A program made the translations under genes and the position numbers. From Verrucomicrobiales bacterium (GTDB lineage: Bacteria > Verrucomicrobiota > Verrucomicrobiia > Verrucomicrobiales > V1-33): a stretch of DNA of 64,000 nt. The stretch lies in contig CBDDIW010000001.1 in NCBI GenBank assembly GCA_965229245.1, positions 650,372 through 714,371 on the forward strand, in the 5' to 3' direction. Shown here one piece after another: positions 5,258 to 26,656 of this stretch (position 1 is its first letter; every line of letters begins with the position of its first letter). A model generated the notes under the pieces. It saw only the letters and a program-made list of their open reading frames with translations, made no database searches and had not been told where the DNA came from.

Positions 5258-5605
5258 TCACTCCAGCGGCAACTCGCCACCACTGAAATCGAAGCTCGTC
5301 CTCTTCTTCGGCCGCAGTGAATACCGCCCGCCCGCCGCGCGCCGCAGAGGCTCAAAAACCGACTCCGCCCCGGCCATGCGGATTTCACACACCACCTGGA
5401 GGAGCCGCCCGAGTTTCCCTTTGGGAAAGCCGTTGTGCTTGAACCAGATGACATACTCGTCCGGCAGATCGTAGAGCGGCACTCCCTTGGGCGGGTAATG
5501 CTGGGGGCCGTATTTCCCGAACGGCATGTGCCAGCGCCCGATCTCGGCGAGGGCCTCCCCGAGATTTGCCTGCCAGTCTGCCAGAAACGCCGCTTCGTCA
5601 TCCAT
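5258..5605 (-). CDS. conserved hypothetical protein, DUF3820-like
   Basis: 115 aa. The motif MPFGKYGPQHYPPKGVPLYDLPDEYVIWFKHNGFPKGKLGRLL resembles the DUF3820 family; the assignment is from memory only. Confidence 0.4.
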   Translation of the reverse strand: MDDEAAFLADWQANLGEALAEIGRWHMPFGKYGPQHYPPKGVPLYDLPDEYVIWFKHNGFPKGKLGRLLQVVCEIRMAGAESVFEPLRRAAGGRYSLRPKKRTSFDFSGGELPLE

Positions 5606-5666
5606 GGCGGGGATTTTGGCCCTTACAGGAACAAGGGAAAGCGAAAACCCCCACCCCCGGTTACCT

Positions 5667-5996
5667 TCAAGGCAGGCCCGGAAATTCCTCCGCCTTCATA
5701 TAGTCCCGGGCGGCCCGGCGTATTTGTACAATCCAGACAGTGCCATTGAGAACAATAAACAGTATCCGGAACTGGCCCCGTTTTTTCCCGAACAACGCCT
5801 GCCTCAGAGATTTTTCAAGGAGAGCTGCTTCGGGAGCAAAACCAAACCTTTCCGGATCATGCGCCACCGGGCCTTCGATCAATGCAAGAATCCCTTCGAC
5901 CCATTTGGCGGCAAAAATTTCGCTTTCCCCTGCAATCCAATCCGTAATCTCCCTTATCTGACGTGCCGCAATCCGGGTATAAACCAGTTTGCTCAC
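5667..5996 (-). CDS. type II toxin-antitoxin system toxin, ParE/RelE family
   Basis: 109 aa with a ParE-like hydrophobic pattern (YMKAEEF, RILFIVLNGTVWIVQIRRAARDY). The 4-bp overlap with the upstream antitoxin gene is the classic TA arrangement. Confidence 0.65.
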   Translation of the reverse strand: MSKLVYTRIAARQIREITDWIAGESEIFAAKWVEGILALIEGPVAHDPERFGFAPEAALLEKSLRQALFGKKRGQFRILFIVLNGTVWIVQIRRAARDYMKAEEFPGLP

Positions 5997-6295
5997 ATTT
6001 TCCGTCCCGGGATTGCTTTTTTCACACGCCCACGAAGCCCGGCATGAACAGATTCGGCATTCTCTCCCTCTCCCGCCTCCGCCTCCTCCAGACTTTTCCT
6101 GATCTCTGCCAGACTCTGCTGCCGGTCAAGAAGCGCGGCCATCTCTTCATACTGCTTCGCTCCAATGACCACACAACGGGCACGGCCATTCACGGTAAGT
6201 ACCGATGCCCTGCCTGTTTTGTTCACCCGGTCCACGGTGGCCCGCGCATTGCGCTGGAAATCAGAAAGTGATTGAATGTCCTCCAGATGAATCAT
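5993..6295 (-). CDS. type II antitoxin, Phd/YefM family
   Basis: 100 aa. N-terminal SLSDFQRNARATVDRVNKTGRASVLTVNGRARCVVIGAKQYEEM matches the Phd/YefM fold signature, with an acidic C-terminal tail. Confidence 0.65.
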   Translation of the reverse strand: MIHLEDIQSLSDFQRNARATVDRVNKTGRASVLTVNGRARCVVIGAKQYEEMAALLDRQQSLAEIRKSLEEAEAGEGENAESVHAGLRGRVKKAIPGRKM

Positions 6296-8295: not shown

Positions 8296-9053
8296 TCGGT
8301 CTCCCTTCAACCATTCTCGCCGTCATCACCACTTTTGCGCACAGCGGCGTGCGCTGCCTGCTCATGGGCGGACAGGCCTGTTGGGTATACGGCTCCGGCC
8401 AGGCAAGCAAAGACGTGGACTTTGCCATCATGGCGGATAGCGGAAATTTGGAGCAATTGCGCGTGGTCCTCGCGGACCTGGCGGCCCAAAACATTGCCGT
8501 TCCCGCCCTGGATCAGCAATTTCTGGATGCCGGACTCGCCGTGCATTTTCGCTGCTCCCGAAAAGACGCCGCGGGTATCCGGGTGGATGTCATGTCGAAA
8601 ATGCGGGGCGTGGATTACTTCGACGCCCTGTGGGAGCGCCGGGCGGTCGCTATCGTGGGAGACGGAGTGGAACTCAACCTCCTTTCCTTGCGTGATCTTA
8701 TCCGTGCAAAGAAAACCCAGCGGGATAAAGACTGGCCTATGATCAGCACACTCGTTTCCGGGCATTACCTGAGAAACGGCCACGATCCCTCGCCCGCAAA
8801 TATCGCTCTTTGGCTGGAGGAGCTTCGTGATCCGGAACTGCTTCTGGAAGCAGTGACCCGCTACCCGGCCGAAGCCGCAAAGGTAGCCTCTTTGCGCGGA
8901 CCGGTGACTATCGCCCGCGACCCCTCCTCTTCCATGGATGACATCCGCCGGGCCATCCGGGACGAAGAGGACGCCGAACGCGCGGCGGACCGGGCCTATT
9001 GGGAACCATTGAAAAAACAACTCGCGGAACTCCGCCGGCAAAAGTATGACTGA
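8292..9053 (+). CDS. hypothetical protein, possibly a Pol-beta-type nucleotidyltransferase fold
   Basis: 253 aa. LMGGQACWVYGSGQASKDVDFAI resembles the hG[GS]...DxD nucleotidyltransferase motif, with a third acidic residue in RVDVM. Overlaps lutB start by 8 bp. Confidence 0.45.
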   Translation: MIGLPSTILAVITTFAHSGVRCLLMGGQACWVYGSGQASKDVDFAIMADSGNLEQLRVVLADLAAQNIAVPALDQQFLDAGLAVHFRCSRKDAAGIRVDVMSKMRGVDYFDALWERRAVAIVGDGVELNLLSLRDLIRAKKTQRDKDWPMISTLVSGHYLRNGHDPSPANIALWLEELRDPELLLEAVTRYPAEAAKVASLRGPVTIARDPSSSMDDIRRAIRDEEDAERAADRAYWEPLKKQLAELRRQKYD

Positions 9054-10479
9054 CACCAAACCCGCCCACCAGTTTCACACGGACGCGGACCAGGTCTCCG
9101 CGGACCTCATTCACCGGCGGCGCATCCAGGGAGCCATGGGGAAATACCTGGCCGCGCGCGGGCCGCGCCAGGCGGCTTTCCGCGACTGGCAGGAGGCCCG
9201 GCAGACGGCGGCGGAGACGAAGTGGGCCGCACTCAATGAGCTGGACAAACACCTTCTGGAGTTTGAAAAACAGGCCACCGCGCGCGGCACCCAAGTGCAC
9301 TGGTGCGGCACCGGGGAAAAGGCGCGGGAGGTCATCGTGGACATCATCCGGAGGCACAAAGCCCAGCGCATTGTGAAGTCCAAGGTGATGACCTCCGAGG
9401 AGATCCATCTCAACAAGCTCCTGGAAAAGCTGGGCTTCAGCGTGGTGGAAAGCGACCTCGGGGAATACATCCAGCAGCTCAAAGGCGAGCCTCCCTATCA
9501 CTTCGTCTTCCCCTGCATGCACCTCAGCCGGGAGGAGATCAGCGACCTCTTTGAAAACAAACTCGGCACCGCGCAAACGCACGATCCCGAGGAGCTCACC
9601 ATGATCGCCCGGAAGGTGCTGCGGCAGAAGTATCTGGAGGCGGATATCGGGTTCACCGGCGCGAATTTCATCGTGGCCGAGACCGGCATGATCTCCATCA
9701 CGGAAAACGAGGGGAACGCCCGGCTCTCCGCCGCCCTGCCGCGAGTGATGATCACCCTCGTGGGCATCGAGAAAATGGTGCCACGCCTCGCGGATCTGGC
9801 GCTCTTTCTCCCCATGCTGGCCACGGCGGGCACGGGGCAGCCGCTCACGTGTTATAATACAGTGTATGGCGGGCCCCGCCAGCCCGGCGAGGTGGACGGC
9901 CCGCTGGAGTGGCACGTCATCCTCCTGGATAACAACCGCACCACCCTCCTCGCGGACCCGGAGCAGCGGGACGCGCTGCACTGCATCCGCTGCGGGGCGT
10001 GTCTGAATGTGTGCCCGGTCTTCAAGAACATCGGCGGCCTGAGCTACGGCACCACTTACCAGGGGCCCATCGGCAGCGTCATCACGCCACACTTGCGCGG
10101 GCTCCAGGACTGGAAGCACCTGTCAGGAGCCTCCTCCCTCTGCGGCGCGTGCACGGAGACGTGCCCGGTGAAGATAGACCTGCATCACCACCTGCTCCAG
10201 AGCCGCCGGAACGCGGTGCGGCAAAAGCGCGGGCGCACGGAGGGCCTGATGTGGCGGGGATTCAGCTTCCTGATGAAGCGCCCGCAGCTTTACCGGGCCG
10301 GGCTGAAGGCGGGCCGGCTGTTCCAGCCGCTGCACGCACTCGTGAAGGGAGGCGCGCTTGATCCCGCGCGCGCATGGACGAAGTCCCGGGAGCTCCCGGA
10401 GGTCGCGCCGCGTTCGTTTCGCGACTGGTGGAGCCACCGCCCTCCCAAAACCCCATCCCCCCCCACCGGCCACTCATGA
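9046..10479 (+). CDS. lutB: lactate utilization protein B (LutB, LUD domain plus 4Fe-4S ferredoxin)
   Basis: 477 aa. 4Fe-4S motifs CIRCGACLNVCPV and CGACTETCPV, with an N-terminal DUF162/LUD region. Confidence 0.85.
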   Translation: MTDTKPAHQFHTDADQVSADLIHRRRIQGAMGKYLAARGPRQAAFRDWQEARQTAAETKWAALNELDKHLLEFEKQATARGTQVHWCGTGEKAREVIVDIIRRHKAQRIVKSKVMTSEEIHLNKLLEKLGFSVVESDLGEYIQQLKGEPPYHFVFPCMHLSREEISDLFENKLGTAQTHDPEELTMIARKVLRQKYLEADIGFTGANFIVAETGMISITENEGNARLSAALPRVMITLVGIEKMVPRLADLALFLPMLATAGTGQPLTCYNTVYGGPRQPGEVDGPLEWHVILLDNNRTTLLADPEQRDALHCIRCGACLNVCPVFKNIGGLSYGTTYQGPIGSVITPHLRGLQDWKHLSGASSLCGACTETCPVKIDLHHHLLQSRRNAVRQKRGRTEGLMWRGFSFLMKRPQLYRAGLKAGRLFQPLHALVKGGALDPARAWTKSRELPEVAPRSFRDWWSHRPPKTPSPPTGHS

Positions 10480-10904
10480 GCTTCCCCATCCGCAGCCCCC
10501 GCCACCAGACCGGCGGCATCTACGTCTTCGCCCGCATCCTGGATAAAATCCGCCTCAATGCCGAGGGCAGTCTCCCCGCGGGTTACCACGTGGGCATCAT
10601 TCCCGGAAACCGCACCTTCGATGACCGGGTGTGCAAGTTCCTCCACATCAACTTCGACACCCTGGTGCCCCGCGTGCTCCAGGGCGGCACGGACGAGGAA
10701 ATCCTGGAATGGTGCTTTGAGAGTGGCCGCCGTCCCTCGGAGGAGGAGGTGGAAATCTGGAACGGCTTCATGAGCAAACGCGGCTGGCGGGACTGGGCCC
10801 AGTCCGGCTTTGATAAATCCCGCGCGGATGCCGGTTTCGAGGACCGGGAGGACATCCAGTGCTATTTTGATCTCATGGATGCGGAGGAGGGGCGGGGCGC
10901 GTGA
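10476..10904 (+). CDS. conserved hypothetical protein inserted between lutB and lutC
   Basis: 142 aa (MSFPIRSPRHQTGGIYVFARILDKIRL...). ATGA overlap with the lutB stop and GTGA overlap with the lutC start, so it appears translationally coupled inside the lut operon. Confidence 0.5.
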   Translation: MSFPIRSPRHQTGGIYVFARILDKIRLNAEGSLPAGYHVGIIPGNRTFDDRVCKFLHINFDTLVPRVLQGGTDEEILEWCFESGRRPSEEEVEIWNGFMSKRGWRDWAQSGFDKSRADAGFEDREDIQCYFDLMDAEEGRGA

Positions 10905-11590
10905 GCGATCGCGAGGCCATCCTTTCCCGCATCCGGGCGGCGCTCACGGTCACCGCGCCGCGTCCCGGCGCGCACGATCACCAGCCGCTCTCCACCGCGC
11001 GGAAAGCCGCCGCCTCCGCGCGCGCCTGGCTGCCCGCCGCCGGGGAGACTCCGGATGAATGGCTGGCCCTCTTCGCGAAGAACTCCGCGGACCTGAAGAC
11101 CACCTTCCTCGCCGTGCCGGACGAAGCCGCCGCCCACGCCGCCCTGCGGGATCTCGCGGCGGCGGAGGGCTGGAGATTCGTGGCCACGCACCGGGGCACG
11201 CTGGCCGCGCCCGCCGCCGTCTCCGCGGGCCCGGCCGTCATGACCGTCACGGAGGGCTACGATGTCCAGGAGCTGGAACGCTGCGACGCGGGCATCTCTG
11301 AATGCGAGGCCCTCATCGCGCAGACCGGCTCCGTGCTGCTCACTGCCCGGGATGGCGGCGGGCGCGCGCTTTCCGTGCTGCCCCCGCACCACGTGGTCAT
11401 CGCCCGGCGCGGACAGCTCCTCCCGGATCTCCCCGCCGCCTATGCCCTGCTGCACGAGAAATACGGCTCGACGGGCTGGCCCGGCATGATGACCCTCATC
11501 ACCGGCCCCAGCCGCACGGCGGACATTGAGCGCATCCTCGTTCTTGGAGCCCACGGGCCGAAGAAGCTGACGGTGATCCTGTTTCCCTGA
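10901..11590 (+). CDS. lutC: lactate utilization protein C (LutC, LUD domain)
   Basis: 229 aa with a GTG start. LUD/DUF162-like protein in the expected position after lutB. Confidence 0.75.
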   Translation: MSDREAILSRIRAALTVTAPRPGAHDHQPLSTARKAAASARAWLPAAGETPDEWLALFAKNSADLKTTFLAVPDEAAAHAALRDLAAAEGWRFVATHRGTLAAPAAVSAGPAVMTVTEGYDVQELERCDAGISECEALIAQTGSVLLTARDGGGRALSVLPPHHVVIARRGQLLPDLPAAYALLHEKYGSTGWPGMMTLITGPSRTADIERILVLGAHGPKKLTVILFP

Positions 11591-11641: not shown

Positions 11642-12742
11642 TCACTGACGTTCGCTCATTTCCTGCTTCAGCCGGAGCTGGCCGCAGGCGGCGTCGATGT
11701 CATGTCCTTTTTCCCGGCGGATGGTGGCGGGGATGCCGGCGTTGTCCAGAACGGCGAGAAAGGCGTCCTGATCCGCCTCGGACGGCCGTGTCCATGGCAG
11801 GCCCTCCACGGTGTTGTAGGGAATGAGATTCACCTTCGCCTGAATGGACCGCGCCCGGCGCGCGAGGGCGGCGGCGTGTTCCGGGCGGTCATTCACATTC
11901 TCTATGAGGATATATTCGAGGGTGATTTTCTGCTTCTTCCGGTCCCGGAAATAAACCAGCGCGTCAAAGAGCTGGTCCAGTGGGTACTTCCGGTTCACGG
12001 GCATGATGACACTCCGCACTTCATCCGTGGCTCCGTGGAGGCTGATGGCCAGCCGCACGGGCATGGGGAAGTCCGCCAGCTTTTTGATCTGCGGCGCGAG
12101 CCCGCTGGTGGAAACGGTGATGTGCCGGGCTCCGATGCCGATGCCCCAGTCCGCCTGGATGATGCGGATGGCGCGGGAGAGATTCGTAAAATTCGCCAGC
12201 GGCTCGCCCATGCCCATGAAGACGATATTATCGATGCGGGAGCCGTCATACGCCTCCGCCTGGAGGATCTGCTCCACAATCTCGTCCGCCCGCAGATTCC
12301 GCGTAAACCCGGCCAGCCCGGAGGCGCAGAATTTACAGTCATAAGCGCAGCCCACCTGACTGCTCACGCAGATGGTGCGGCGGTCACTCTGCTCCCCGAA
12401 GGCTCCGCGATTGGCCGGAATGAGCACGCTCTCCACATAGCGTCCATCGTGCAGCCGGAAGAGGAATTTCCGGGTGGTATCCTTCGCGCCCTGCACCTTC
12501 GCGATCCGCATGGTGTGCAGGGGGTGCGTGGCTGTGAGCCGCGCGCGGAGGGACTTCCCCAGGCTGGTCATGGATTCATAGCCCGCCGCCCGCTTCTGGA
12601 AGACCCAGTCCAGGATCTGCTTTGCCCGGTAGCGGGGCTCCCCCCAGGACGCAAGCTCCTCCTCCAGCTCCTCCGGAAGCATTCCGGTAAGAGCGGGCGC
12701 GTCGGAGGGGGCAAGGGCTGGCGAACTGGCGGCGGTTTCCAC
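11642..12742 (-). CDS. rlmN: 23S rRNA (adenine2503-C2)-methyltransferase RlmN (radical SAM)
   Basis: 366 aa. Radical-SAM motif CAYDCKFCASG and the conserved RlmN C-terminal region (NLIPYN, ACGQL). Confidence 0.9.
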   Translation of the reverse strand: METAASSPALAPSDAPALTGMLPEELEEELASWGEPRYRAKQILDWVFQKRAAGYESMTSLGKSLRARLTATHPLHTMRIAKVQGAKDTTRKFLFRLHDGRYVESVLIPANRGAFGEQSDRRTICVSSQVGCAYDCKFCASGLAGFTRNLRADEIVEQILQAEAYDGSRIDNIVFMGMGEPLANFTNLSRAIRIIQADWGIGIGARHITVSTSGLAPQIKKLADFPMPVRLAISLHGATDEVRSVIMPVNRKYPLDQLFDALVYFRDRKKQKITLEYILIENVNDRPEHAAALARRARSIQAKVNLIPYNTVEGLPWTRPSEADQDAFLAVLDNAGIPATIRREKGHDIDAACGQLRLKQEMSERQ

Positions 12743-12855
12743 GATAAGTAATGGATCGCACGGCTGCCGCGGCGGCGAAAGCCGAAAGAACAGAGCAGTT
12801 TCTGTTTCCGGCTCCCGTCGGAAAGCGAGACAGGAAAAAGGAAAAGACCGGAGGA

Positions 12856-13845
12856 TTACCCGACGGTCACGCGCACGCCTTGGGTGGTGCCGATGACCCC
12901 CAGTTCCCGCGCGCCGGAGCCGGCGGCGAGGGCTTTCTCTTTATCCGCGGCCGGAACGATGACCACCCAGCCCCAGCCCATGTTGAACGTATGGAGCTGG
13001 CTCTCCGGATCACAGTGGCGGAGCACCTTCGGGATGGCTCCCAGAGTCCATTCCGGGATGGAAATGTCCGCGCCTTTTTCACCCAGGAAGCGCTCCAGAT
13101 TCTCCGGCAGCCCGCCTCCGGTGATGTGGGCCATGGCCTTGATATCACAGCCCGCGGCGCGCAGGGCGGCCACTTCCTCATGATACAGGGCGGTGGGGGC
13201 CAGCATTTCCCGGATCTCCTCGCGGGTGAAGTCCTCCGGATGCTCGCGCAGCACGCGGCGCACAAGGCTCCAGCCGTTGGCATGGAATCCGGCGGAGGGA
13301 TAGCCCACCAGCACGTCCCCGGGCTCCACGCGCTCCGGGTTGATGAGGTCCTTCTTTTCCACCGCGCCGATAGCGAAACCGCTGAGTTCGATGAGACCGT
13401 CCGGCACGATGCCCGGCATCTCCGCCGTCTCACCCCCGGCCAGGATGCAATCGCACGCGCTCAGCCAGTCCGTCATGCCGGCGATGAGGCGGGTGATCTG
13501 CGTTTTGTCGATGCGCCCGATACCGATGTAATCCAGGAACATAATGGGGTCCCCGCCCGTGGTGAGGACATCATTCACACTCATGGCCACCAGGTCCTTG
13601 CCCGCGGTCTCCAGTTCATCGTGCTCCAGCAGGAGCTCCAGCTTCGTGCCCACGCCATCGCAGCCGGTCACGATCACCGGCTCCTTATAGTCGCTCAGAT
13701 CATAGGCGGCGGCAAAGAGGCCGAAGGCACCGAAAAGCTTGCGTTTCGTCTCGGTGCGGCGGCGGAGTTCACCGAAGACATCCCCCACGAGGGCGGCGGC
13801 GGCTTTGGTATCGACTCCGGCTTCTTTGTAGGTGAGCTTGGCCAT
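12856..13845 (-). CDS. purM: phosphoribosylformylglycinamidine cyclo-ligase (AIR synthase)
   Basis: 329 aa. MAKLTYKEAGVDTKAAAAL N-terminus and the AIRS domain signature. Confidence 0.9.
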   Translation of the reverse strand: MAKLTYKEAGVDTKAAAALVGDVFGELRRRTETKRKLFGAFGLFAAAYDLSDYKEPVIVTGCDGVGTKLELLLEHDELETAGKDLVAMSVNDVLTTGGDPIMFLDYIGIGRIDKTQITRLIAGMTDWLSACDCILAGGETAEMPGIVPDGLIELSGFAIGAVEKKDLINPERVEPGDVLVGYPSAGFHANGWSLVRRVLREHPEDFTREEIREMLAPTALYHEEVAALRAAGCDIKAMAHITGGGLPENLERFLGEKGADISIPEWTLGAIPKVLRHCDPESQLHTFNMGWGWVVIVPAADKEKALAAGSGARELGVIGTTQGVRVTVG

Positions 13846-13905
13846 GCGGGAAAAAAGGTGCGGCTGGGAGGCAGGGGGGTGTTGTTGGGAGGAGAGGGGA
13901 AAAGA

Positions 13906-14643
13906 TCAGGCGAGGAGCTTGCTCTGGCCGCTGAGTTCGCGCCAGATGGAGCGGAAGAAATAATAGCCGTAGCCGTGCTCGCCATCGCCCTTCCAGTCCT
14001 GATCGTAGTGATGCGAACGGAAAAGAAAGCGCTCCGGGTGCGGCATGAGGCCAAAAACCCGGCCTGTCTCGTCCTGGAGGCCGGCGATGCGCTGGCTGGA
14101 GCCGTTCACATCGTCCTCGTATTGCAACGTCACGAGACCCTTCGCGAAGTATTCCTCCACCTTCCCCTCCGGAGCCACGAAGCGGCCCTCGGCGTGGGCG
14201 ATGGGGAGTTCCCACTCCTCCGGCAGTTCCGCCAGGAAGGGATTGTCCCGCTGCACGCTTTTCAGCTTCACCCACCGGCACTGGAAGCGCCCGCTGGCGT
14301 TGTCGATGAGGGAGCCCGTGGGCAGCACGCCGATCTTGCTGAGAATCTGGAAGCCGTTGCAGATCCCGAGCACATAGCCGCCGCCCGAGATGAAGTGCTC
14401 CAGGGACTGCCCCAGCCGCCGCTCCGTGACCAACTGGGCGATGCGCCCGGCCATGACGTAGTCCCCGTAGGAAAAGCCGCCGCTCATCACCACCAGTTGC
14501 GCCGCCTTCAGATGATCCGGCGTGACGAGGGAAATGGGCACGATGTTCGTGCCAAACCCGGCGGTCTTCAACGCACGGGAAGTCTCCGCATCACAGTTGG
14601 TCCCGGGGAATTTGATGAGCAAAGCTGAAGGCTGGGAGTTCAT
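13906..14643 (-). CDS. purQ: phosphoribosylformylglycinamidine synthase subunit PurQ (glutaminase)
   Basis: LLIKFPGTNCD N-terminus, catalytic GICNGFQ and HPER motifs. Start trimmed to ATG 14643 (the listed ORF extends to 14799). Confidence 0.85.
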   Translation of the reverse strand: MNSQPSALLIKFPGTNCDAETSRALKTAGFGTNIVPISLVTPDHLKAAQLVVMSGGFSYGDYVMAGRIAQLVTERRLGQSLEHFISGGGYVLGICNGFQILSKIGVLPTGSLIDNASGRFQCRWVKLKSVQRDNPFLAELPEEWELPIAHAEGRFVAPEGKVEEYFAKGLVTLQYEDDVNGSSQRIAGLQDETGRVFGLMPHPERFLFRSHHYDQDWKGDGEHGYGYYFFRSIWRELSGQSKLLA

Positions 14644-15015
14644 GAGGAACACCATTACAGGGGCGGGGGCAGGGCGAATGCAAGGGGAAGGTGACCAGGA
14701 GAAAAGCAGGCCCGGTCCGGGGAGCCGGTTGTTGACCGCTCCGTTCAGAGTCAGCTCAGCCCCCGCCGTCACGCCGGTCCACCGGGGCGATGAGCCCATA
14801 CCCGGAAATGGAGTTCCAAAGGCCCGAGCCGGATATAGCCAGAAACGGAGTCTTCTAGTTTCACTTACGGAGCCAGAGAGGGAAGTGTATAATTCCTCAT
14901 GATTTCAATAAACAGCTATGCCCCCGTGTTCACGGAAACCTTTCTTAATTATTTCCCTGGCATTTGATGGTCTCAAATTTAAATAAATTTGAAATAACAG
15001 AAGAAGCAGAATCAA

Positions 15016-15948
15016 ATGGCCCATATCACCTTCATTCATGGCATCTCCAATAAACCGGCGGCGGACCGGTTGTTGCGCATCTGGCTGGATTCCCTTACCG
15101 GGGGGACCGGCGGAATCGATCTGGACGCGGAAGGCGTCACCACTTCCATGATTTATTGGGCGGATGTTCTTTATCCGGAACCGGTCGCCGCGGAAGCCGA
15201 GTTCGTAAATGAAGCGAACACCGCGGAACTGCCCTCCGCCACCGATCCGAATATGAAATGGCGAGAGCATCTTTCCGGGGAGGAAAAAGCCATCACCGAC
15301 GCCCTGGCTGCCAAATTGAGCTTCGATGTGCTTACCGAGGACACCTATGTGCCACCGGTGACCGCGATGGATGCCCAGCTTGAACGAATTCCCCTCCCCT
15401 GGTTTGTAAAACGCCGGGTCATGAAGGAATTCCTTCGTGATGTCCATCACTACCTCTTTAACGAAACCTCCTCACCCCGGCCCGGAGTTTCCTATAAGGT
15501 AAGAGATGAAATCAGAAGTCGAACCATCGCCGCCCTCCAGGCAGGCTCCTCGAAACCGGGCCCGCACCTTCTCGTAAGCCACAGCATGGGGACAGTCATC
15601 GCCTACGATTGTCTCAAGCGGGTTCCGGAATGCCCGGCGGTGGATGGCCTGATGACTGTCGGAAGTCCTCTCGGGATTGATGAAATCCAGGACAAACTCA
15701 AGCCTGAATGGTCTCGCGCCAACGGCTTTCCCTCAAAAGTAAAAGGGGGATGGATCAATATTTATGACAGCCTCGACCCGGTCACGGGTTTTGACGGAAA
15801 CATTGCCAATGACTTCAAGAAAGACGGCCGTGAGGAAGTGGAGGTAATCAATGAACAGAACTACGGCGCCTGGCGGCATGATATCGTCAAGTACCTGGCG
15901 GGCACAAAGCTCCGGGCAAGCCTGGGACGTTTGCTTTCCGGCCTCTAA
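15016..15948 (+). CDS. alpha/beta-hydrolase fold protein, lipase/esterase-like (gene A of candidate three-gene system)
   Basis: 310 aa. ITFIHGI oxyanion-hole-like motif and LVSHSMGT nucleophile elbow (GxSxG). Candidate acid (IYDSLDP) and His (AWRHD) residues. GC is markedly lower than the flanks. Confidence 0.7.
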   Translation: MAHITFIHGISNKPAADRLLRIWLDSLTGGTGGIDLDAEGVTTSMIYWADVLYPEPVAAEAEFVNEANTAELPSATDPNMKWREHLSGEEKAITDALAAKLSFDVLTEDTYVPPVTAMDAQLERIPLPWFVKRRVMKEFLRDVHHYLFNETSSPRPGVSYKVRDEIRSRTIAALQAGSSKPGPHLLVSHSMGTVIAYDCLKRVPECPAVDGLMTVGSPLGIDEIQDKLKPEWSRANGFPSKVKGGWINIYDSLDPVTGFDGNIANDFKKDGREEVEVINEQNYGAWRHDIVKYLAGTKLRASLGRLLSGL

Positions 15949-15962: not shown

Positions 15963-17612
15963 ATGGCGTGGAATTCGATTACCTTCAATCAGGAGCTGTC
16001 CTCTGCCGCCGGCACTTTTAATTTGGCCGCCGTCTCAGAGTTGTGCGGACAGTTAATCAAACACCTTAACGAAACAGGAGATCCTTATCCTTCAGATGAT
16101 GCCTCGGCGGCAATGTCAATCCTGCGCCGGAAAAGGTATTTCAGTCTCATGATGAAAGTAGGCGCGGCTTTTATGATGACGGGCCGCGCCTCCCTGAAAG
16201 TAATTCGTTTGTTTGCTCAGGCGCAGATCGATGACGGGGATGTCGCCGCCGGGTTGATCACTCTACATGATCTGGCCGCCAAGGCGGAGCTACTCGGGCA
16301 TCAAGGCGAATTGAACGAAGCCCGGGGCTTGATCGGCCGGGCGCATAAGCAGTATTATGTAACCACCGAAGGAAACGCCCCTCACCGGCTGGAACACTTG
16401 AAAAAGTCTCTGAAAGCCTATTTGGAGGTTTATAGCACGTTGCCGGAGAAATGCCTGTGGCACGGGATCAACAGCGTGGCTCTGCTCAGGCGGGCTGAGC
16501 GCGAATCCGTGGACTGTCCTGTTTTCGTGGATCCCGAAACCATCGCGAAACAGATTTTTTCCGTGATTTCCCACTTGAGAGAACCGGTGGAAGTGTGGGA
16601 TTGCGCCACCGCCATGGAAGCCAGCCTGGCTTTGGGGGATCTGAAAAATGCGGGGGCCTGGCTTGAACGGTATGTGGCTCATCCTGACGGGGACGCGTTT
16701 GAACTTGCCAGCACTCTGCGTCAGTTGGAAGAGGTCTGGCAACTGGACTCCGCGCAGGGAGCCGGGCAGTTACTGTTACCGGTTCTCCGGGCTCACCTTC
16801 TCGCGAAGGAGGGTGGAGCGGTGGATATGTCTCTTTCCGAAATGAGGAAATCCGCCGCGGTCTCCCCGCCCCAGGCGTCTGACTTTGAAAAGGTCTTTGG
16901 AACTGACTCCTATAAGGCGCTTGAATGGTTTCGCAAAGGATTGCGGCGGGCCAGGCTTGTGGGCCGCATCGGCAGAACCTCCACCGAGGGACACGGCACG
17001 GGTTTTGTCCTTCTGGGGAAGACGCTCTCTCCAGTGTGGGGCGAAAGTTCAATCCTTCTTACCAACAGCCATGTGGTTTCCGATAATCCGGAGATCTGCA
17101 AACAGGGGGCGCTCCACCCCTCGGAGGTAGTCGTCACCTTTGAGGCCCTTGGAAACGGGGAGGAATATACGGTGGACCTGCTTTGGACCTCCCCTCCCGA
17201 CAAACTGGACGCCACGGTTCTGCTCCTTAAGGATACCTCGAAGCTCGCCCCCCTTTTGACGGATGATCACGCGAAAATAGCGACCGGCCTGCCGCTACTC
17301 AATGATTACGCCCGTGTATATATTATCGGGCATCCCCAGGGAGGAGGCTTGAGTTATTCCCTCCAGGACAATCTGCTGCTGGATCACGAAGATCCTCTGC
17401 TCCACTACCGGGCACCCACGGACCACGGGAGTTCAGGCAGTCCGGTATTCAACGCCAACTGGGATTTCATCGGGCTCCACCATAAGGGCAGCGAGACCAT
17501 GCGGAGATTAAATAAAAAACCGGGCACCTACCCGGCGAACGAAGCCATCTGGCTTCAGGCTGTCATTTCTGAATTGAAAACCCATCCGCCGGCACCCCCG
17601 GCCTCCACTTGA
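15963..17612 (+). CDS. trypsin-like (chymotrypsin-fold) serine peptidase with an about 330-aa N-terminal alpha-helical (TPR-like) domain (gene B)
   Basis: 549 aa. The C-terminal about 200 aa carry His (LLTNSHVV), Asp (DKLDATVLLL) and Ser (DHGSSGSPVF) in canonical order and spacing. The N-terminal region is predicted helical with no recognised motif. Starts 14 bp after gene A. Confidence 0.75.
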   Translation: MAWNSITFNQELSSAAGTFNLAAVSELCGQLIKHLNETGDPYPSDDASAAMSILRRKRYFSLMMKVGAAFMMTGRASLKVIRLFAQAQIDDGDVAAGLITLHDLAAKAELLGHQGELNEARGLIGRAHKQYYVTTEGNAPHRLEHLKKSLKAYLEVYSTLPEKCLWHGINSVALLRRAERESVDCPVFVDPETIAKQIFSVISHLREPVEVWDCATAMEASLALGDLKNAGAWLERYVAHPDGDAFELASTLRQLEEVWQLDSAQGAGQLLLPVLRAHLLAKEGGAVDMSLSEMRKSAAVSPPQASDFEKVFGTDSYKALEWFRKGLRRARLVGRIGRTSTEGHGTGFVLLGKTLSPVWGESSILLTNSHVVSDNPEICKQGALHPSEVVVTFEALGNGEEYTVDLLWTSPPDKLDATVLLLKDTSKLAPLLTDDHAKIATGLPLLNDYARVYIIGHPQGGGLSYSLQDNLLLDHEDPLLHYRAPTDHGSSGSPVFNANWDFIGLHHKGSETMRRLNKKPGTYPANEAIWLQAVISELKTHPPAPPAST

Positions 17613-17618: not shown

Positions 17619-18998
17619 ATGCAACCTCTTGAGATCGCACCGGCCCCTCCCGCTACTCCGGCTCCCGTTAATGTCACTTATCCGCTGAAGATCTTTCTCA
17701 GCCACAAACTGGGCCCATCCAAAGCGAAAGCGGAGCGGATCGCCGCGGCTCTGTCGCTTTTTGCCGGGGATAAACTCAGGATCACTTGCTCAGCCACGTT
17801 TGCCAAGGGCATTGACTGGGAGGAGACTATAAAGAGGGAATTGAAAGCCGCCCATTGGTTTATTCTGATCTATGACGGACCTGACGTGAACCACGACTGG
17901 TGCCTTTTTGAGGCGGGCTTTTTCCTTGCCAACGATCCCGGCAGGAAATTGATCTGCCTTCATGATCCAAGACACAGTCTGCCTCCTCCTTTGAGACAAT
18001 TTGTGGACGTGCCCGCCCGTGCCGAAGAGGTCATGAGCCTGTTCCAGGAAATTTATTTCAATCCTCCATGGGCGATCAAACCGGAACTGCTGCTGGCAAA
18101 TGGCCCTCTTCCCGATTATGTCAACCGCATCGTAAAGGAGATCAATGGCCAGGATATTCTTTCTCAATTCACCCTCTCCCCCACCTTTACTTTCCAAATA
18201 AGGAACGAAAACATTTCCCTGCTGAGTGAAGGCATTATCGACGACAACGCCGAGATCAGTGGAGACGGTGCCTGGGAAGCCATATTTGGAAAACCGGATG
18301 CCACCATCTCGTGGACATGGAAAGGCATCACCGACGGATTAGATGACTGGCAGGCATGGGCATACCAGCTCGCGGGCATGATGGCCGAGGCGATCACCAC
18401 AATATCCGTGAACAACCCCTCGACAGCATTGCGCGTACGCCTTAAAAACGGACAGGAATCTATTTACAGAGTCCTGATCCGGCGCATGGAGAGAACAACG
18501 GAAGCATACCGGTTCACCTTCGGAGCCGCTGAGATTGTGACCTCATACCGTCCGGGGGACGCGGCAAGCCGGACGAAAATATTTCATCTTTATAACCTCG
18601 CATGGTTTTTCAAAGAAAATTTCCTGAAGACTCATCTCGCCGCGCTTGAAGAGCAGGTTCTCATGAAGGCTCTTCCTCCGGACTTTCTCCCCAAAAGGAT
18701 CAAAAATATCCGGGATGACCTTAAAGCCCTGCACGCTGAAGCCCAGGTTCGGGGCATAGAAGACAATGCCCGGGTGGTCAATGCTTTCCGACCGGAGTTG
18801 AGGGCTCCGGTGGCAGCCGCGTTGCAGGAAACCTGGCCCTTGCTCGACCAGGCTTTGCAGGAGGCCTGCTCCGCGGCAAAGCCGTCGCTGACCGCCCTGA
18901 TCAAGGCACTGAGGGAGATGAAGCCCATCAACACTTTTTTTCTGAAGAGTTGCCTTGAAGAATTGCAGGTTCTCGAAGAACTCCCTGGCGCGGGGTGA
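17619..18998 (+). CDS. TIR-domain protein with an about 280-aa C-terminal domain of unknown function (gene C)
   Basis: 459 aa. Residues about 20-180 have the KIFLSHK beta-A motif and a W-C-L-F-E-A-G motif matching the conserved (S)xWCxxE of TIR domains, which contains the catalytic Glu. Starts 6 bp after gene B. Confidence 0.7.
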   Translation: MQPLEIAPAPPATPAPVNVTYPLKIFLSHKLGPSKAKAERIAAALSLFAGDKLRITCSATFAKGIDWEETIKRELKAAHWFILIYDGPDVNHDWCLFEAGFFLANDPGRKLICLHDPRHSLPPPLRQFVDVPARAEEVMSLFQEIYFNPPWAIKPELLLANGPLPDYVNRIVKEINGQDILSQFTLSPTFTFQIRNENISLLSEGIIDDNAEISGDGAWEAIFGKPDATISWTWKGITDGLDDWQAWAYQLAGMMAEAITTISVNNPSTALRVRLKNGQESIYRVLIRRMERTTEAYRFTFGAAEIVTSYRPGDAASRTKIFHLYNLAWFFKENFLKTHLAALEEQVLMKALPPDFLPKRIKNIRDDLKALHAEAQVRGIEDNARVVNAFRPELRAPVAAALQETWPLLDQALQEACSAAKPSLTALIKALREMKPINTFFLKSCLEELQVLEELPGAG

Positions 18999-20516: not shown

Positions 20517-21044
20517 ATGTTCCTTCGTTTTGTCCCCGTTATCGCCTGCGCGGTCGCATTCTCCGGCTGCAAACGCCACACGGTCATAGATCCCGCCGAT
20601 CTGCAAACCCCCGCAGCGGAAGCCGCGCTGCGCTACGTCATCGACCACAGCCCCCGGAGGAAAGACGCAAAGCTGGCAATTATCTGCATCGGGGATGCTC
20701 CTATGAGTCCTGCCACCGAAGAATTTGAGGCACGGTTCAAAGACATTCCCGGTCTGGAGTTTATCAACTTTCTGAGGATGGAACATGGCATGTATAATGG
20801 AAAACCCCGACGCTGGGACTTCCAGACAAAGAAATTCGTGCTGGAGGTTCAGATCAGTGCCCTCACGCCTTTTAAGGACGGACGGGCGGAGGCCATCGCG
20901 GCATGGGCGTATGAGGATGACGCGGAGCGCTACCGGCTGAGGATTCTGGAAAAAGCGGGCGGCGGCTATGACGTGAAAGAACTGGAGACCATTCCTGTTT
21001 CCAATCGCAACGACGACCGGAGCAGTGTCACGAAGGGCAAGTGA
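20517..21044 (+). CDS. hypothetical lipoprotein
   Basis: Signal peptide with lipobox AFSGC, 175 aa. Confidence 0.5.
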   Translation: MFLRFVPVIACAVAFSGCKRHTVIDPADLQTPAAEAALRYVIDHSPRRKDAKLAIICIGDAPMSPATEEFEARFKDIPGLEFINFLRMEHGMYNGKPRRWDFQTKKFVLEVQISALTPFKDGRAEAIAAWAYEDDAERYRLRILEKAGGGYDVKELETIPVSNRNDDRSSVTKGK

Positions 21045-22269: not shown

Positions 22270-22444
22270 CCTGGCCGTCCCGGAAAACGACATCGCATCG
22301 GCACGCACTACAGAAACCGGTTAGCCGGACACCAGTGATTTCAAACCGCCGCCACGGGAGTTCCCACGTTTGCGGGTCTTTCGCGCGCTTTAGGCGGCAC
22401 GGTGTGCCGGTCTCTTGTCTCACCCCCATTTCACAAATCCCCCC

Positions 22445-25400
22445 ATGATTCTGAAGCTCCTCCCCGCCATTGTCCTGCTGCCCTCGTTTCTTCACGCCCG
22501 CCCGTTTGAGAATATGTCGAGTGACGGCAAAACCCCGGATGGCTGGGAGGGAAACCCCGCGTGCTGGCGGGTGGCGGATGGCATCCTCACCGGGGAGATC
22601 AAGGAGGGCACCACCCTGGACCGCAATGAATGGTTCTTCATGAACCAGGAGACGGGGGACTTTGAATTGACCGTGGAATACCGCATCACCGGCGGCCCCA
22701 CCGCCAACAGCGGCATCCAGATCCGCAGCCGGCGGGATGCCAAAGGCCAGGCCAGCGGGCTCCAGTGTGATCTGGACGATGGCAAGGAATGGCTGGGCCG
22801 CATCTATGATGAGCACGGGCGCGCGCTGGTGATGGAGCGGGGCACGCGCGTGTCCATCGCCCCGGACGGCCGCCGCTGGGCAGATCCCTTCGCGGACCCG
22901 AAGTCCTTCACAAAAATCGCGAAGAAGGATGACTGGAACACCTATCGCATCAAGGCCACCGGCTCCCACGTGCAGGTCTGGATCAACGGTGTCTTCTTTG
23001 GCGCGCTGGATGACCACGAGTCGAAGGCGGCGGAATACAGCGGGAAAATCGCCTTCCAGCTCCACGCCGGGGCGGGTCCGGCGAAGGTGGAATTCCGGAA
23101 CTTCAATCTTCTGGACAAAGGAAAGACCGACCCGCCCGCGGGAGCCAAAACCGTGGCCGAAGACAAACCGGACGACGTTTTCCACCCCTCCAGCGCGGAC
23201 GGCAAGCCGCTGAATCTCGGCTTTGAAAAAGGGAATCTGGATGGCTGGACCGCGGAGGGTGATGCCTGGGAGAGCCAGCCCATCAAGGGCGACACCGTGT
23301 CCCCCCGGAAGCCGGGGCAGGCCAGCCGCCACGCGGGGCAATACTGGATCGGCGGCTACGAGCCGAAACTGACGGATGCCGGCACGGGCAAGCTGACCTC
23401 CGTCCCTTTCGAGGTGACGCATCCCTGGGCCAGCTTTCTCGTGGGGGGCGGTGGCGAGGTGGCCTCCGTGCGGGTGGAGATCGTGGACGCGGAGACGGGG
23501 AAAATCTTCCACACCGCCGCTGGGCGCTTTGAGGAGGACATGCACCGGGAGGTGGTGGATATGCGGCCCATGAAGGGGAAGAAGGTTTTCCTCCGCCTCA
23601 TCGACCGCGCGAAAGGCGGCTGGGATCACCTGAACTTTGACGACTTCGCCTTCCACAACGAACCACCGGCGAAGGCCGTGGCGGAGGGCAGCCGCCAGAC
23701 GCAGAGCCCCGTGCTCTGGCACCTCCAGCCGAATCCCGCGAAGCCCACCGCCATTCAAAATCCGGAGGCGCAAAAGACCGTGGCCACCATGATGCTCACC
23801 AGCGGCTTCCAGGCGGAACTCATCGCCGCCGAGCCGGAGGTGCGCCAGCCCATCGCTTTCACCATCGACGAAAAAGGACGCCTCTGGATTCTGGAGGGCT
23901 ACAGCTATCCTAACAAACAACCGGAGGGCCAAGGGAAGGACCGGATCATCGTGCTCTCGGACCAGGATGGGGACGGGGTGTTCGAGACCCGCCGGGTCTT
24001 CGCGGAGGGGATCAATCTGGGGAGCGGCATCGAGGTGGGGTTCGGCGGGGTCTTCGTGGGCGCGGCCCCGGAGCTGCTGTTCTTCCCCGCCAGCACCCGG
24101 GACGACCAGGTGGCCGCCGGGCCGCCGAAGGTGCTCCTGGACGGCTGGGGCTATCAGGACACGCACGAGACCCTGAACAGCTTTTCCTGGGGGCCGGACG
24201 GCTGGCTCTACGGCTGCCATGGCGTCTTCACCACCTCCTATGTGGGCAAGCCGGGAACCGCGAAGGAAGGGCGCGTGCCGCTGCACGCGGGCGTGTGGCG
24301 CTACCACCCGGTGAAGGGGGAATTCGAAGTCTTCGCCCACGGCGGGAGCAATCAATGGGGGCTGGACTACAATGAAGCCGGCGACCTTTTCATGACCCAC
24401 TGCCGGAGCTTTTTCGGCGGCGGCGGCACCACCTATGTCATCCGCAACGGGCACTACTGGAACCAGGCGAACGCTGGCTACGCGCCGTTCATTTCCAACA
24501 GCGGCCCGGACTTCGCCCCGGACCTGAAGAACTACCTGCCCGCCGCCGCGCTCTATGACAGCGGCGAGGGTGGCGCGGGAAAACCCGGCACCACGGCCAT
24601 CTATGGCGGGCACTCCCACGTGGGCACCATGATTTACCAGGGCACGAACTGGCCGGAGATCTACCGGGGCCACCTTTTCACGCACAATCTCCACGGGCAC
24701 CAGATGAACCACCAGGAGAACGTGCGGTCCGGCTCCGGCTATGAGACCATGCACGCCGGGGCGGATCTCCTCCACGCGCCGGACCCCCGCTACATGGCGG
24801 TGGACCTCCAGAGCGGCCCGGACGGAGCGGTCTATACCATCGACTGGTTTGACCAGCAGCACTGCCACACACCCATCGAGGAAAAGTGGGACCGGAGCAA
24901 CGGGCGGGTGTATCGCGTCTCATGGGCGGCCACCTACAAACCGGTGAAAGTGGATCTCTCGGGGGAAAGTGATGAAGCCCTCGCGAAGCTCCAGAATCAC
25001 GCGGACGAATGGTACCGCCGTAACGCCCGCCGCCTGCTCATGGAGCGCGCGGCCACGCGTCCCCTGGATGAGCGGGCTGTCCCGGTACTCCGTGACCTGG
25101 CGGGTAACGCCGGGATGGAGCCATCCTTGCGCGGCCTGTGGACCCTCGCGCAGTGCAATCTTCTGACAAAGCGGGAGATCACGCTCGCGGCCCGCAATGA
25201 CAACGCCCCCACCCGCGCCTGGGCCGTGAGGCTGGCCACGGAAAAGGGAGCGAAGGATCTGCTGGATCCCGCGATCCTCCTGAAGCTGGCGAAGGAGGAT
25301 CCCGCGCCCGCCGTGCGCCTGGCCCTCGCCTCCGGCCTGCCCTCCCTGCCAAATGACCAATGCTGGGAAATCGTGACCGCGCTCGCCGCCCACGTCGAAG

Positions 25401-26656
25401 ACGATAAAGACCGTTTCCTGCCGAAGCTCATCTGGACCGGATTCGCCCCCGTGGCGAAAACCGACTGGCCGCGCGCCCTCGCCCTGGCCGCCACCACCCC
25501 GCTGCACGAGCTGGCGGACAGCATCCGCTGGTATGCCGCGCAGGACGCCGCCGGGCGTGAAGCCCTGGCCTCCGCCGCCGCCGGACAATCCGCCATCAAA
25601 GCCGGCCGCGCGGTGAGGATCGCCGCCTTTGCCCTGCGGGACGAGGCCACGCTCACTCCTCCCGCCTCCGCGGAGGCCGCCATGAAAGCCCTGGGCGAAA
25701 ACCCGGAACCCGCCGTGCTGGCCGCCGCGAATGAGCTGGCCGCCACCTTTGGCGACAAGGACGTGCTGGGCCGCATGCGCGCGGTGCTCGCGGATGCGAA
25801 CGCGCCGCTGGGAGAAAGGAAGTCCGCCTTTGCCCTGCTGAAGCGCACCGGGGATAAAGAGGCCCTGGGGGTTTTTGCCACCCTGCTGGATAACGCGGCT
25901 TTCCGCTCCGCCGTCATCCCGCTCCTGGGCCGGAGCGACGACCCCGCGGTGGCCACCGCCCTGCTGGAACGGTATGCGAACCTCTCCGTGAATGACCGCA
26001 ACGCGGCGCTCGCCGCCCTGACCAGCCGCGCCCCGTTGGCGCTCACGCTGGTGAAGGCCATGGCCGCGGGCACCTTTGACAAGAAGCAGCTCACGGCGGT
26101 GCACATCCGCCAGATGCGGAATCTCGGCAGCGCGGAGCTGAACACCCTGCTCGAAAAGACCTGGGGGAAATTCAATCCGTCCTCCGAAGCCTCCAAAGCC
26201 ACGATCGCCAAATTCAAGAAGCTTTACAACGAGGCCCCGCTCTGGGCCTACGATGCCGGGAAGGGCCGCGAGGTCTTCACCCGCGTGTGCGGCGCGTGCC
26301 ATGCCTATGGCCAGGGCGAGGCCCGCGTTGGGCCCAACTTGGGAGGCACCTGGCGCAATGGCGTGGACTACTTCCTAGAGAACATCGCGGACCCGAACGC
26401 GGTCATTGGCGATGACTTCCAGCTCACCATCATCACGAAAAAGGATGACACCGTGTATGCGGGGATCGTGGAAAAAGAGACGGACACCGCGGTGGTGCTG
26501 CGGACACTCACGGAATCTGTTAGTATCCCGAAAGCGGATAATAATATCAAATCCCGTGAGAAACTGCAACAAAGCCTCATGCCGCCGGGCCTTTTGGAGT
26601 CCATGTCGGAGCGGGAAGCCCTTGAGTTGTTGAAGTTCCTGTCCACACAGCAGTAA
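22445..26656 (+). CDS. large exported fusion protein: DUF1080 (3-keto-disaccharide hydrolase-like) domain, then PVC-type membrane-bound-dehydrogenase beta-propeller with HEAT repeats, then C-terminal CxxCH cytochrome c domain
   Basis: 1403 aa from ATG 22445 (signal peptide MILKLLPAIVLLPSFLHA). DUF1080 block (WRVADGILTG, IAFQLHAG), long helical repeat region, heme motif VCGACHAYG and C-terminal LMPPGLLESMSEREALELLKFL, typical of the Planctomycetes/Verrucomicrobia heme-binding dehydrogenase family. Confidence 0.8.
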   Translation: MILKLLPAIVLLPSFLHARPFENMSSDGKTPDGWEGNPACWRVADGILTGEIKEGTTLDRNEWFFMNQETGDFELTVEYRITGGPTANSGIQIRSRRDAKGQASGLQCDLDDGKEWLGRIYDEHGRALVMERGTRVSIAPDGRRWADPFADPKSFTKIAKKDDWNTYRIKATGSHVQVWINGVFFGALDDHESKAAEYSGKIAFQLHAGAGPAKVEFRNFNLLDKGKTDPPAGAKTVAEDKPDDVFHPSSADGKPLNLGFEKGNLDGWTAEGDAWESQPIKGDTVSPRKPGQASRHAGQYWIGGYEPKLTDAGTGKLTSVPFEVTHPWASFLVGGGGEVASVRVEIVDAETGKIFHTAAGRFEEDMHREVVDMRPMKGKKVFLRLIDRAKGGWDHLNFDDFAFHNEPPAKAVAEGSRQTQSPVLWHLQPNPAKPTAIQNPEAQKTVATMMLTSGFQAELIAAEPEVRQPIAFTIDEKGRLWILEGYSYPNKQPEGQGKDRIIVLSDQDGDGVFETRRVFAEGINLGSGIEVGFGGVFVGAAPELLFFPASTRDDQVAAGPPKVLLDGWGYQDTHETLNSFSWGPDGWLYGCHGVFTTSYVGKPGTAKEGRVPLHAGVWRYHPVKGEFEVFAHGGSNQWGLDYNEAGDLFMTHCRSFFGGGGTTYVIRNGHYWNQANAGYAPFISNSGPDFAPDLKNYLPAAALYDSGEGGAGKPGTTAIYGGHSHVGTMIYQGTNWPEIYRGHLFTHNLHGHQMNHQENVRSGSGYETMHAGADLLHAPDPRYMAVDLQSGPDGAVYTIDWFDQQHCHTPIEEKWDRSNGRVYRVSWAATYKPVKVDLSGESDEALAKLQNHADEWYRRNARRLLMERAATRPLDERAVPVLRDLAGNAGMEPSLRGLWTLAQCNLLTKREITLAARNDNAPTRAWAVRLATEKGAKDLLDPAILLKLAKEDPAPAVRLALASGLPSLPNDQCWEIVTALAAHVEDDKDRFLPKLIWTGFAPVAKTDWPRALALAATTPLHELADSIRWYAAQDAAGREALASAAAGQSAIKAGRAVRIAAFALRDEATLTPPASAEAAMKALGENPEPAVLAAANELAATFGDKDVLGRMRAVLADANAPLGERKSAFALLKRTGDKEALGVFATLLDNAAFRSAVIPLLGRSDDPAVATALLERYANLSVNDRNAALAALTSRAPLALTLVKAMAAGTFDKKQLTAVHIRQMRNLGSAELNTLLEKTWGKFNPSSEASKATIAKFKKLYNEAPLWAYDAGKGREVFTRVCGACHAYGQGEARVGPNLGGTWRNGVDYFLENIADPNAVIGDDFQLTIITKKDDTVYAGIVEKETDTAVVLRTLTESVSIPKADNNIKSREKLQQSLMPPGLLESMSEREALELLKFLSTQQ

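Follow-up and report, generated by a model that had tools for sequence, protein, structure and literature searches.

An alpha/beta-hydrolase gene, a TPR-S–trypsin protease gene and a TIR gene in a Verrucomicrobiales genome: a candidate Thoeris-like conflict module

We analysed a stretch of 64,000 nt from a Verrucomicrobiales bacterium (assembly GCA_965229245.1, contig CBDDIW010000001.1, positions 650,372 to 714,371), called here the window, in which three closely spaced genes lie on the plus strand. Gene A (15016..15948) encodes a 310-aa protein predicted to be a lipase/esterase-like alpha/beta-hydrolase, gene B (15963..17612) a 549-aa protein consisting of a TPR-S sensor domain and a trypsin-like serine protease, and gene C (17619..18998) a 459-aa TIR-domain protein. 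The gap from the stop codon of A to the start codon of B is 14 nt and that from the stop of B to the start of C is 6 nt. The GC content of the three genes is 0.54-0.56 and their GC content at third codon positions (GC3) is 0.62-0.64, as against a GC3 of 0.81-0.86 in the flanking housekeeping genes. The A-B-C group is a lone insertion of foreign composition, about 4.2 kb long, and it lies outside any large defence island.

The reading frame of gene B (15963-17612, plus strand) runs uninterrupted over 549 codons from an ATG start, and the reverse strand is interrupted by stops; gene B is a genuine gene. Pfam matched residues 345-505 to Trypsin_2 (E 1.5e-18) and residues 79-175 to TPR-S (PF20308), the latter with a score over the gathering threshold. 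A preliminary description of this DNA had proposed that an intact catalytic triad is present in the order H (TNSHV), D (LDATV) and S (GSSGSPVF) and that the enzyme is probably active. All three motifs were found, within LLTNSHVV, KLDATVLL and HGSSGSPVF, with the catalytic codons at 17070-17072 (His370), 17208-17210 (Asp416) and 17433-17435 (Ser491). In an alignment of 32 sequences of 42-54% identity, these three residues and the sequence GSSGSP were invariant, and B has the His-Asp-Ser order on a double beta-barrel fold that characterizes the active form of S1 (chymotrypsin/trypsin-fold) proteases. Because the triad is invariant, the sequence indicates that B is very probably an active serine protease.

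The AlphaFold2 model of B, built from the 32-sequence alignment, had a mean predicted local distance difference test score (pLDDT) of 88.7. It consisted of 14 helices at residues 5-282, a disordered linker at residues 287-309, a long helix at residues 306-330 and a beta-rich protease at residues 333-540. On the DNA, the helical solenoid, which resembles TPR-S and the central regulatory region (CRR) of ASK1, corresponds to residues 1-282 (15963..16808), the flexible interdomain linker (pLDDT <50) to residues 287-309 (16821..16889) and the trypsin-fold protease domain to residues 333-540 (16959..17582), all on the plus strand. The modelled protease domain resembled FAM111A, DegS and V8, and weak sequence similarity was observed to DegS, Deg, HtrA and staphylococcal Spl/V8. 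Three family-wide motifs mark the TPR-S domain, namely GRxxKQ (with Arg126 and Lys129), WHGIN (166-170) and WDxATxxE (212-219). The N-terminal domain of roughly 330 aa, which the preliminary description had called helical-repeat-like and able to mediate target or partner binding, could thus be given an identity as a TPR-S/ASK1-like module, and its sequence is consistent with a function as a helical-repeat sensor or partner-binding domain. No PDZ domain was found in B by Pfam, and no signal peptide or transmembrane segment was obvious at its N-terminus (MAWNSITFNQELSS...) when judged by eye without a predictor. The protein is probably cytoplasmic, as far as its sequence allows this to be judged.

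Gene A belongs to a family of approximately 2,011 members with 58-70% identity, which makes it more conserved than B (42-55%). No Pfam domain was detected in the family, and no metallo-beta-lactamase (MBL) or nuclease match was obtained for A in Pfam, PADLOC or NCBIfam. The alignment of the family showed invariant residues at His8-Gly9, in the oxyanion-hole position, at Ser190 in an HSMG nucleophile elbow, at Asp251/Asp254, the two acidic candidates, and at His288; these residues fit an alpha/beta-hydrolase. The AlphaFold2 model of A (pLDDT 82.4) displayed an alpha/beta-hydrolase fold, and a Foldseek search with this model returned weak matches to BioH3, the minimal lipase LipA of B. subtilis, YdeN and monoglyceride lipases. 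The model presents A as an alpha/beta-hydrolase of the lipase/esterase-like kind. The hydrolase core is minimal, and the most variable stretch of A is an insertion at residues 55-128, which is acidic (20% Asp/Glu) and partly disordered, with low pLDDT, in the model.

The linkage between A and B was followed in 83 retrieved loci, in which open reading frames were called and then searched with A, B and C. An A-like gene was located directly upstream of B and on the same strand in 46 of the 77 loci with enough upstream sequence, and the spacing from the A stop to the B start was between -10 and +20 nt in 33 of these 46. When three A homologues were checked, each had a trypsin-like protease gene immediately downstream; this gene encoded an intact TPR-S-trypsin protein in two cases and was split in the third. 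Pairwise distances among A proteins correlated with those among B proteins (r = 0.82; Mantel test, 0 of 2000 permutations). Fusions of A to B were absent from the top matches of the A and B searches. Since A is tightly linked to B and co-diverges with it, A is a credible substrate of B. The split B gene, at 1988-3640 of locus L090, consists of parts of 89 aa and 399 aa, and only the 399-aa part matches Trypsin_2; it may represent gene decay or a fault in the assembly. In the same locus a MAP3K_TRAF_bd fragment was seen upstream.

Proteins with the architecture of B are numerous. More than 1,855 homologues were found in a collection of 5.8 billion proteins and at least 569 loci in a collection with one bacterial genome per species; in the scan of the genome collection, relatives were obtained with the alignment as the query and none with the single B protein. 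The family is spread over Verrucomicrobiota, Acidobacteriota, Bacteroidota, Gemmatimonadota, Proteobacteria, Actinomycetota, Planctomycetota and Deinococcota. A phage origin of B was considered and rejected, as 2.9 million viral contigs gave two weak matches, both to the protease domain only.

The neighbourhoods of B are enriched in TIR, TPR-S and calcineurin-like genes. With an in-house TIR profile, TIR genes were detected in 31 of the 81 other B loci, and a locus with TIR genes often had several of them; Pfam TIR_2 confirmed 53 of the 58 matches of this profile. The density of TIR genes was 24 per 100 kb within 0.5 kb of the B operon and had dropped 12-fold, to 2 per 100 kb, at a distance of 5-8 kb. 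In at least eight loci B is adjoined by 450-aa proteins with full-length MAP3K_TRAF_bd and TPR-S matches, which we read as the architecture of ThsI, judging from the published description of that protein. An HHalign comparison of the N-terminal domain of B with the TPR-S region of these neighbours gave a probability of 98.7% (E 4e-16), and the two share the motifs GRxYK, (W/P)xGINxxxL and (Y)WDxATxxE. Calcineurin-like phosphoesterases, patatin and other TPR-S effectors were also found next to B. One B locus additionally contains a TPR-S-patatin protein, and TIR-TPR-S proteins occur in some loci. Where A is missing, other hydrolases stand beside B, namely Amidase_2, calcineurin-like phosphoesterase (Metallophos) and GDSL-like proteins. 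In locus L006 (3022-9830) a single operon carries A, B, a ThsI-like MAP3K_TRAF_bd+TPR-S protein and a TPR-S-patatin protein in a row, so that three different effectors are combined with the same sensor domain.

Elsewhere the TPR-S-trypsin unit is fused to EAD1, to nSTAND1 and other STAND NTPases (STAND/AAA_16), to CbiA/ParA and to the NucA endonuclease. Examples are the B relatives P0275, P0281, P0261, P0251 and P0356, which include nSTAND1/STAND NTPases, EAD1 adaptors and a second trypsin together with NucA. Fusions to partners of such variety indicate that the unit is a portable effector cassette. EAD1, STAND NTPases, CbiA/ParA and NucA are parts of conflict systems described by Kaur et al.

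Two further observations concern the surroundings of B in particular loci. In L001, the locus of the closest A-B relative, whose B is 55% identical, the genes directly upstream of A (3998-5997) are one for pYEATS and one for a 230-aa unknown protein, and an AbiEii/AbiEi pair with a DnaB_C fragment lies just downstream (8966-10964); these neighbours make up a defence-island context, unlike that of the window. In the Bacteroidota loci L012, L014, L019, L020, L023, L026, L033, L047, L055, L063 and L088, B is followed immediately, in convergent orientation, by a gene for a conserved protein of some 325 aa. The protein had no Pfam match and may be a further partner or antagonist of B.

The TIR domain of C spans approximately residues 24-131 (17688-18011, plus strand) and contains the motifs IFLSHKL and DWCxxE, the latter of which we take to be the catalytic-glutamate motif of enzymatic TIR domains. 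Only nine homologues of C were found, all with TIR_2 (PF13676). In their alignment both motifs were kept and Glu98 (codon 17910-17912) was invariant. The remaining C-terminal region of 330 aa has no known fold. No C homologue was detectable in the 81 other B loci. The relatives of C are found in other company. In locus L084 (7001-10222) a C homologue of 50% identity is followed by ThsB_TIR, a Peptidase_C14 caspase and a 163-aa gene, the stop of one gene overlapping the start of the next; the arrangement is that of a type IV Thoeris-like operon that includes an extra TIR protein. C relatives also lie next to SLATT_1 in other loci, and patatin genes occur near them: in L084 and L085 the patatin gene lies within a few kb upstream, and in L086 it is on the opposite strand at a distance of about 6 kb. 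Verified effectors of Thoeris include SLATT and caspase-like proteins, and patatin is among the known or proposed effector types. From its relatives beside such effectors C behaves like a signalling TIR of the ThsB type that swaps effectors. As in Thoeris, an adjacent TIR gene with the catalytic glutamate is present in the form of C. The other Thoeris hallmark, recurrent co-occurrence of one TIR family with one effector family, was not observed for C, and the TIRs found with B in 31 of 81 loci are related to it at the superfamily level. The preliminary description had named A and C side by side as partners of B. For A this is borne out by its upstream position and its co-divergence. C is not a conserved partner of A and B, so the two neighbours should not be treated as equivalent.

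Taken together, the three genes may constitute a horizontally acquired, cytoplasmic, Thoeris-like anti-phage conflict module in which a TIR signal acts through TPR-S and the protease to uncage A. We put this forward tentatively, as a proposal whose chances fall somewhat short of even. In such a module C, with its intact catalytic-Glu motif and its private C-terminal domain, would detect infection and make a nucleotide signal from NAD+. In B, the ASK1-like TPR-S domain would bind this signal, or receive its trigger in some other way, and would then release or oligomerise the C-terminal trypsin-like protease. B would cut its dedicated partner A, a caged alpha/beta-hydrolase, inside the acidic insertion at residues 55-128, and the freed A might act as an esterase or lipase on a lipid or ester substrate, damage the cell and abort the infection. 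The polar motifs common to TPR-S paralogues with different effectors suggest a common small ligand. The idea of the preliminary description, that the protease gates a neighbouring effector, draws partial support from the defence-type neighbourhoods of B and from a co-diverging A as its credible substrate; that the N-terminal domain serves as a regulatory switch is a part of that idea which we continue to infer.

Several observations weigh against this proposal. No TIR gene was present within 8 kb in 62% of the B loci, and a TIR signal could not be the general trigger unless the TIR protein is encoded elsewhere in the genome. None of the four other C-family loci examined contained A or B, and the link between C and B in the window consists of adjacency and common composition only. 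The Pfam TIR_2 match of C (residues 25-129) scored 24.5 bits, below the cut-off of 28. In the fusions with STAND NTPases, EAD1 and NucA, activation by oligomerisation or protein contacts is more likely, and even for ThsI the binding of a nucleotide by TPR-S is presumed only (2025 preprint). On the side of A, the insertion at residues 55-128 could be an ordinary lipase lid, and the co-divergence of A and B could stem in part from common species phylogeny. The flanks of the island in the window are housekeeping genes and do not form a defence island. PADLOC had no model matching gene A or C and gave weak protease-domain matches only for gene B (RT-Protease_XI, PDC-S45), and NCBIfam matched none of A, B and C. 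We found no paper or PADLOC model for an operon of an alpha/beta-hydrolase with a TPR-S-trypsin, and the accessible part of a Thoeris survey preprint lists no trypsin or TPR-protease effector.

The scarcity of TIR genes within 8 kb of most A-B loci and the different partners that the C family has elsewhere would also fit a self-sufficient A-B pair. The solenoid of B would then sense a phage or stress protein or peptide, or oligomerise, and B would cleave A, with C an independent NADase TIR defence gene that travels along. Where TPR-S-trypsin is joined to STAND NTPases and to EAD1 adaptors, triggering by protein-protein contact is the norm, and both TPR solenoids and the ASK1 CRR are classic protein-binding scaffolds. 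We consider such autonomy a genuine possibility, if a doubtful one, as it accounts poorly for the steep gradient of TIR density towards the operon, for the ThsI-like TPR-S effectors, calcineurin phosphoesterase and patatin that co-occur with B, for the 6-nt gap and matching GC3 of B and C, and for polar motifs that are kept across TPR-S paralogues with different effector domains. A more distant departure from the proposed cascade makes B itself the killer, a protease degrading many cellular or phage proteins, with A not a substrate but acting independently alongside it, as a co-effector or accessory such as a membrane lipase or a signal-processing esterase. The caspase-like ThsE of type IV Thoeris does cleave indiscriminately after TIR signalling, the protease fold of B resembles that of the broad-specificity proteases HtrA, V8 and FAM111A, and B loci lacking A carry unrelated hydrolases (Amidase_2, Metallophos, GDSL-like). 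The near-obligate adjacency seen from the side of A, the translational-coupling distances and the co-divergence point instead to a specific physical partnership, and A is more conserved than B while bearing a variable disordered insertion like that of known gated pro-enzymes; we regard a general killer as decidedly unlikely.

Proteolysis might alternatively connect B with C, in either direction, so that C-terminal trimming of the TIR protein would unleash NAD+ depletion and A would be incidental. The 330-aa C-terminal domain of C could be auto-inhibitory, and the gap between the two genes is just 6 nt, but a dedicated pairing is contradicted by the four other C loci examined, none with a B-like protease, and by the 81 other B loci, none with C-like genes. 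This makes activation between B and C very improbable. It is scarcely plausible at all that B is an ordinary protease of the HtrA/DegP or V8 type, with a housekeeping role or secreted for quality control, and that its neighbours are unrelated. The fold and the weak similarity to DegS, Deg, HtrA and staphylococcal Spl/V8 would agree with such a role; the lack of a PDZ domain by Pfam and of an obvious signal peptide or transmembrane segment by eye, the TPR-S domain, which is diagnostic of conflict systems, the patchy distribution among phyla, the foreign composition of the island and the conserved partner and neighbourhood all disagree with it.

Upstream of the island the minus strand carries an rlmN-like radical SAM gene (11642-12742), a purM-like AIR (aminoimidazole ribonucleotide) synthase gene (12856-13845) and a purQ-like amidotransferase gene (13906-14799), with a GC3 of 0.81-0.83. 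Two plus-strand open reading frames in the same region (11702-12751 and 12751-14628) were rejected as genes. They are shadow frames with junk-like translations and a GC3 of 0.64, and it is the rlmN-, purM- and purQ-like frames on the opposite, minus strand that are real genes, which makes this a trap for a reading of a high-GC window from its sequence alone. The A+T-rich spacer of 216 nt (14800..15015) between the divergent purQ-like gene and gene A is the presumed promoter region of an A-B-C operon; a sigma-70 consensus scan of its plus strand gave nothing above chance and did not locate the promoter. Around the island, tRNA genes, direct or inverted repeats and promoter or terminator consensus sequences were absent or at chance level. 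Downstream of the island lie an OmpA-family gene and a mutY-like gene. Just past the OmpA-family gene, a 175-aa open reading frame (20517-21044, plus strand) has an island-like GC content of 0.566 and GC3 of 0.665. It had no match in Pfam, NCBIfam or PADLOC, and it could be a second foreign gene or no gene at all. Farther along the plus strand, the window contains a gene (22415-26656) whose 1,413-aa product combines 3-keto-disaccharide hydrolase, DUF7133 and HEAT domains; large multidomain proteins of this type are common in the Planctomycetes-Verrucomicrobia group. An open reading frame of 3,284 aa (47603-57457, plus strand) would yield a giant protein if translated.

If the proposed cascade is correct, it would unite two principles of bacterial immunity that have been established recently, the reading of TIR-made nucleotide signals by TPR-S and protease-gated pro-enzymes, in one small and abundant cassette, to which it would contribute an executioner of the lipase type under the control of a serine protease. 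In a more general form, the pair of A and TPR-S-trypsin, with at least 569 species genomes and many phyla, would be a widespread unnamed immune cassette: an ASK1-type TPR would sense a nucleotide that a TIR protein derives from NAD, and the protease would then uncage a lipase. In that form it would amount to a new Thoeris type and, within bacterial immunity, to the first zymogen cascade that runs from a serine protease to a lipase, and it would offer a bacterial model for the original ligand sensing of the ASK1 regulatory domain; we think this generalisation unlikely, though worth stating. The A-B(-C) module is simple, with two or three genes and clear catalytic residues. It is frequent among soil and aquatic phyla, to which defence screens centred on E. 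coli and Bacillus have given poor coverage, and it is absent from PADLOC v2. The module also gives tractable access to what the ASK1-like TPR domain, which is shared with animal stress signalling, binds and does. Should the mechanism be wrong, B would still have been correctly annotated as one of a large family of uncharacterised proteases.

A computational description of conflict systems centred on TPR-S is attributed to Burroughs and Aravind (2020). B has a TPR-S domain above the Pfam cut-off and with strong HHalign similarity to its ThsI-like neighbours, many of its loci have TIR genes nearby, and the calcineurin, patatin and multiple TPR-S effectors per operon match the accessory set of such systems. 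Tpr-core assemblies have as accessory genes TIR, patatin, SLOG-type proteins, calcineurin and caspase (2023 preprint). In type VIII Thoeris the TIR protein ThsB makes canonical cyclic ADP-ribose (cADPR), which activates ThsI ('CMP hydrolase and TPR'), with the TPR as the presumed sensor (2025 preprint). ThsI carries its DrHyd/CMP-hydrolase effector at the N-terminus, whereas the effector of B is a C-terminal trypsin-like protease. B lacks the DrHyd/CMP-hydrolase, has TPR-S from residue 1 and ends in the trypsin, and it is therefore no orthologue of ThsI. It also differs from ThsI systems in its obligate-looking partner A, which has not been reported for ThsI, and the TIR protein C in the window comes from a different, rare family.

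Comparators more remote in fold illuminate the protease step. Gasdermin and CalpL/CalpT systems had been offered as mechanistic models in the preliminary description, and the likeness proved to be thematic: the gasdermin-protease and CalpL/CalpT/CalpS systems share with A-B-C the general scheme of a regulated protease that cuts a neighbour to trigger a response, and none of their genes is present. By Pfam, NCBIfam and PADLOC, neither A, C nor the neighbours included a gasdermin, SAVED, Lon protease, CalpT/S-like protein, anti-sigma/sigma pair or CRISPR context. Closer comparators are the type VIII Thoeris TPR-S systems, type IV Thoeris and the pro-nuclease/trypsin pairs of Hachiman and AVAST. 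The protease fold and catalytic motif of B recur in HtrA/DegS, in V8/Spl/exfoliative toxins and in human FAM111A, with an identity of 16-24%; members of the HtrA/DegP family differ from B, which has no PDZ domain by Pfam and no secretion signal evident by eye. The helical domain of B resembles the CRR of ASK1 (MAP3K5), at an identity of 13% only; in ASK1, unlike B, the domain is coupled to a kinase as part of a stress-signalling complex of eukaryotes.

In type IV Thoeris a TIR protein makes N7-cADPR, which activates the caspase-like protease ThsE. The logic of a TIR signal leading to a protease effector is the same as that proposed for the window, and a C relative stands directly beside ThsB_TIR and Peptidase_C14. 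B differs from this caspase-fold cysteine protease in being a trypsin-fold serine protease with a TPR-S sensor and a dedicated hydrolase partner. Gated pairs of a pro-nuclease and a trypsin occur in Hachiman (HamM-HamA), AVAST (Avs1), Lamassu and DRT, alongside caspase-nuclease (canu) loci, and in Hachiman and AVAST cleavage at specific sites activates a pro-nuclease that is encoded separately upstream and gated by disordered insertions (Tuck et al., Science 2025). A resembles these pro-enzymes in lying immediately upstream of the sensor-fused trypsin of B, in its disordered insertion and in its joint inheritance with the protease. The differences are that A is an alpha/beta-hydrolase with a Ser-His nucleophile pair and a conserved Asp in place of an MBL-fold nuclease, and that the protease of B is fused to TPR-S and not to HamA, Avs or LmuA; cleavage of A is a putative step, proposed by analogy with these pairs. 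In the way it works, the A-B-C module would come closest to a cross between TPR-S/Thoeris signalling and protease-gated pro-enzymes.

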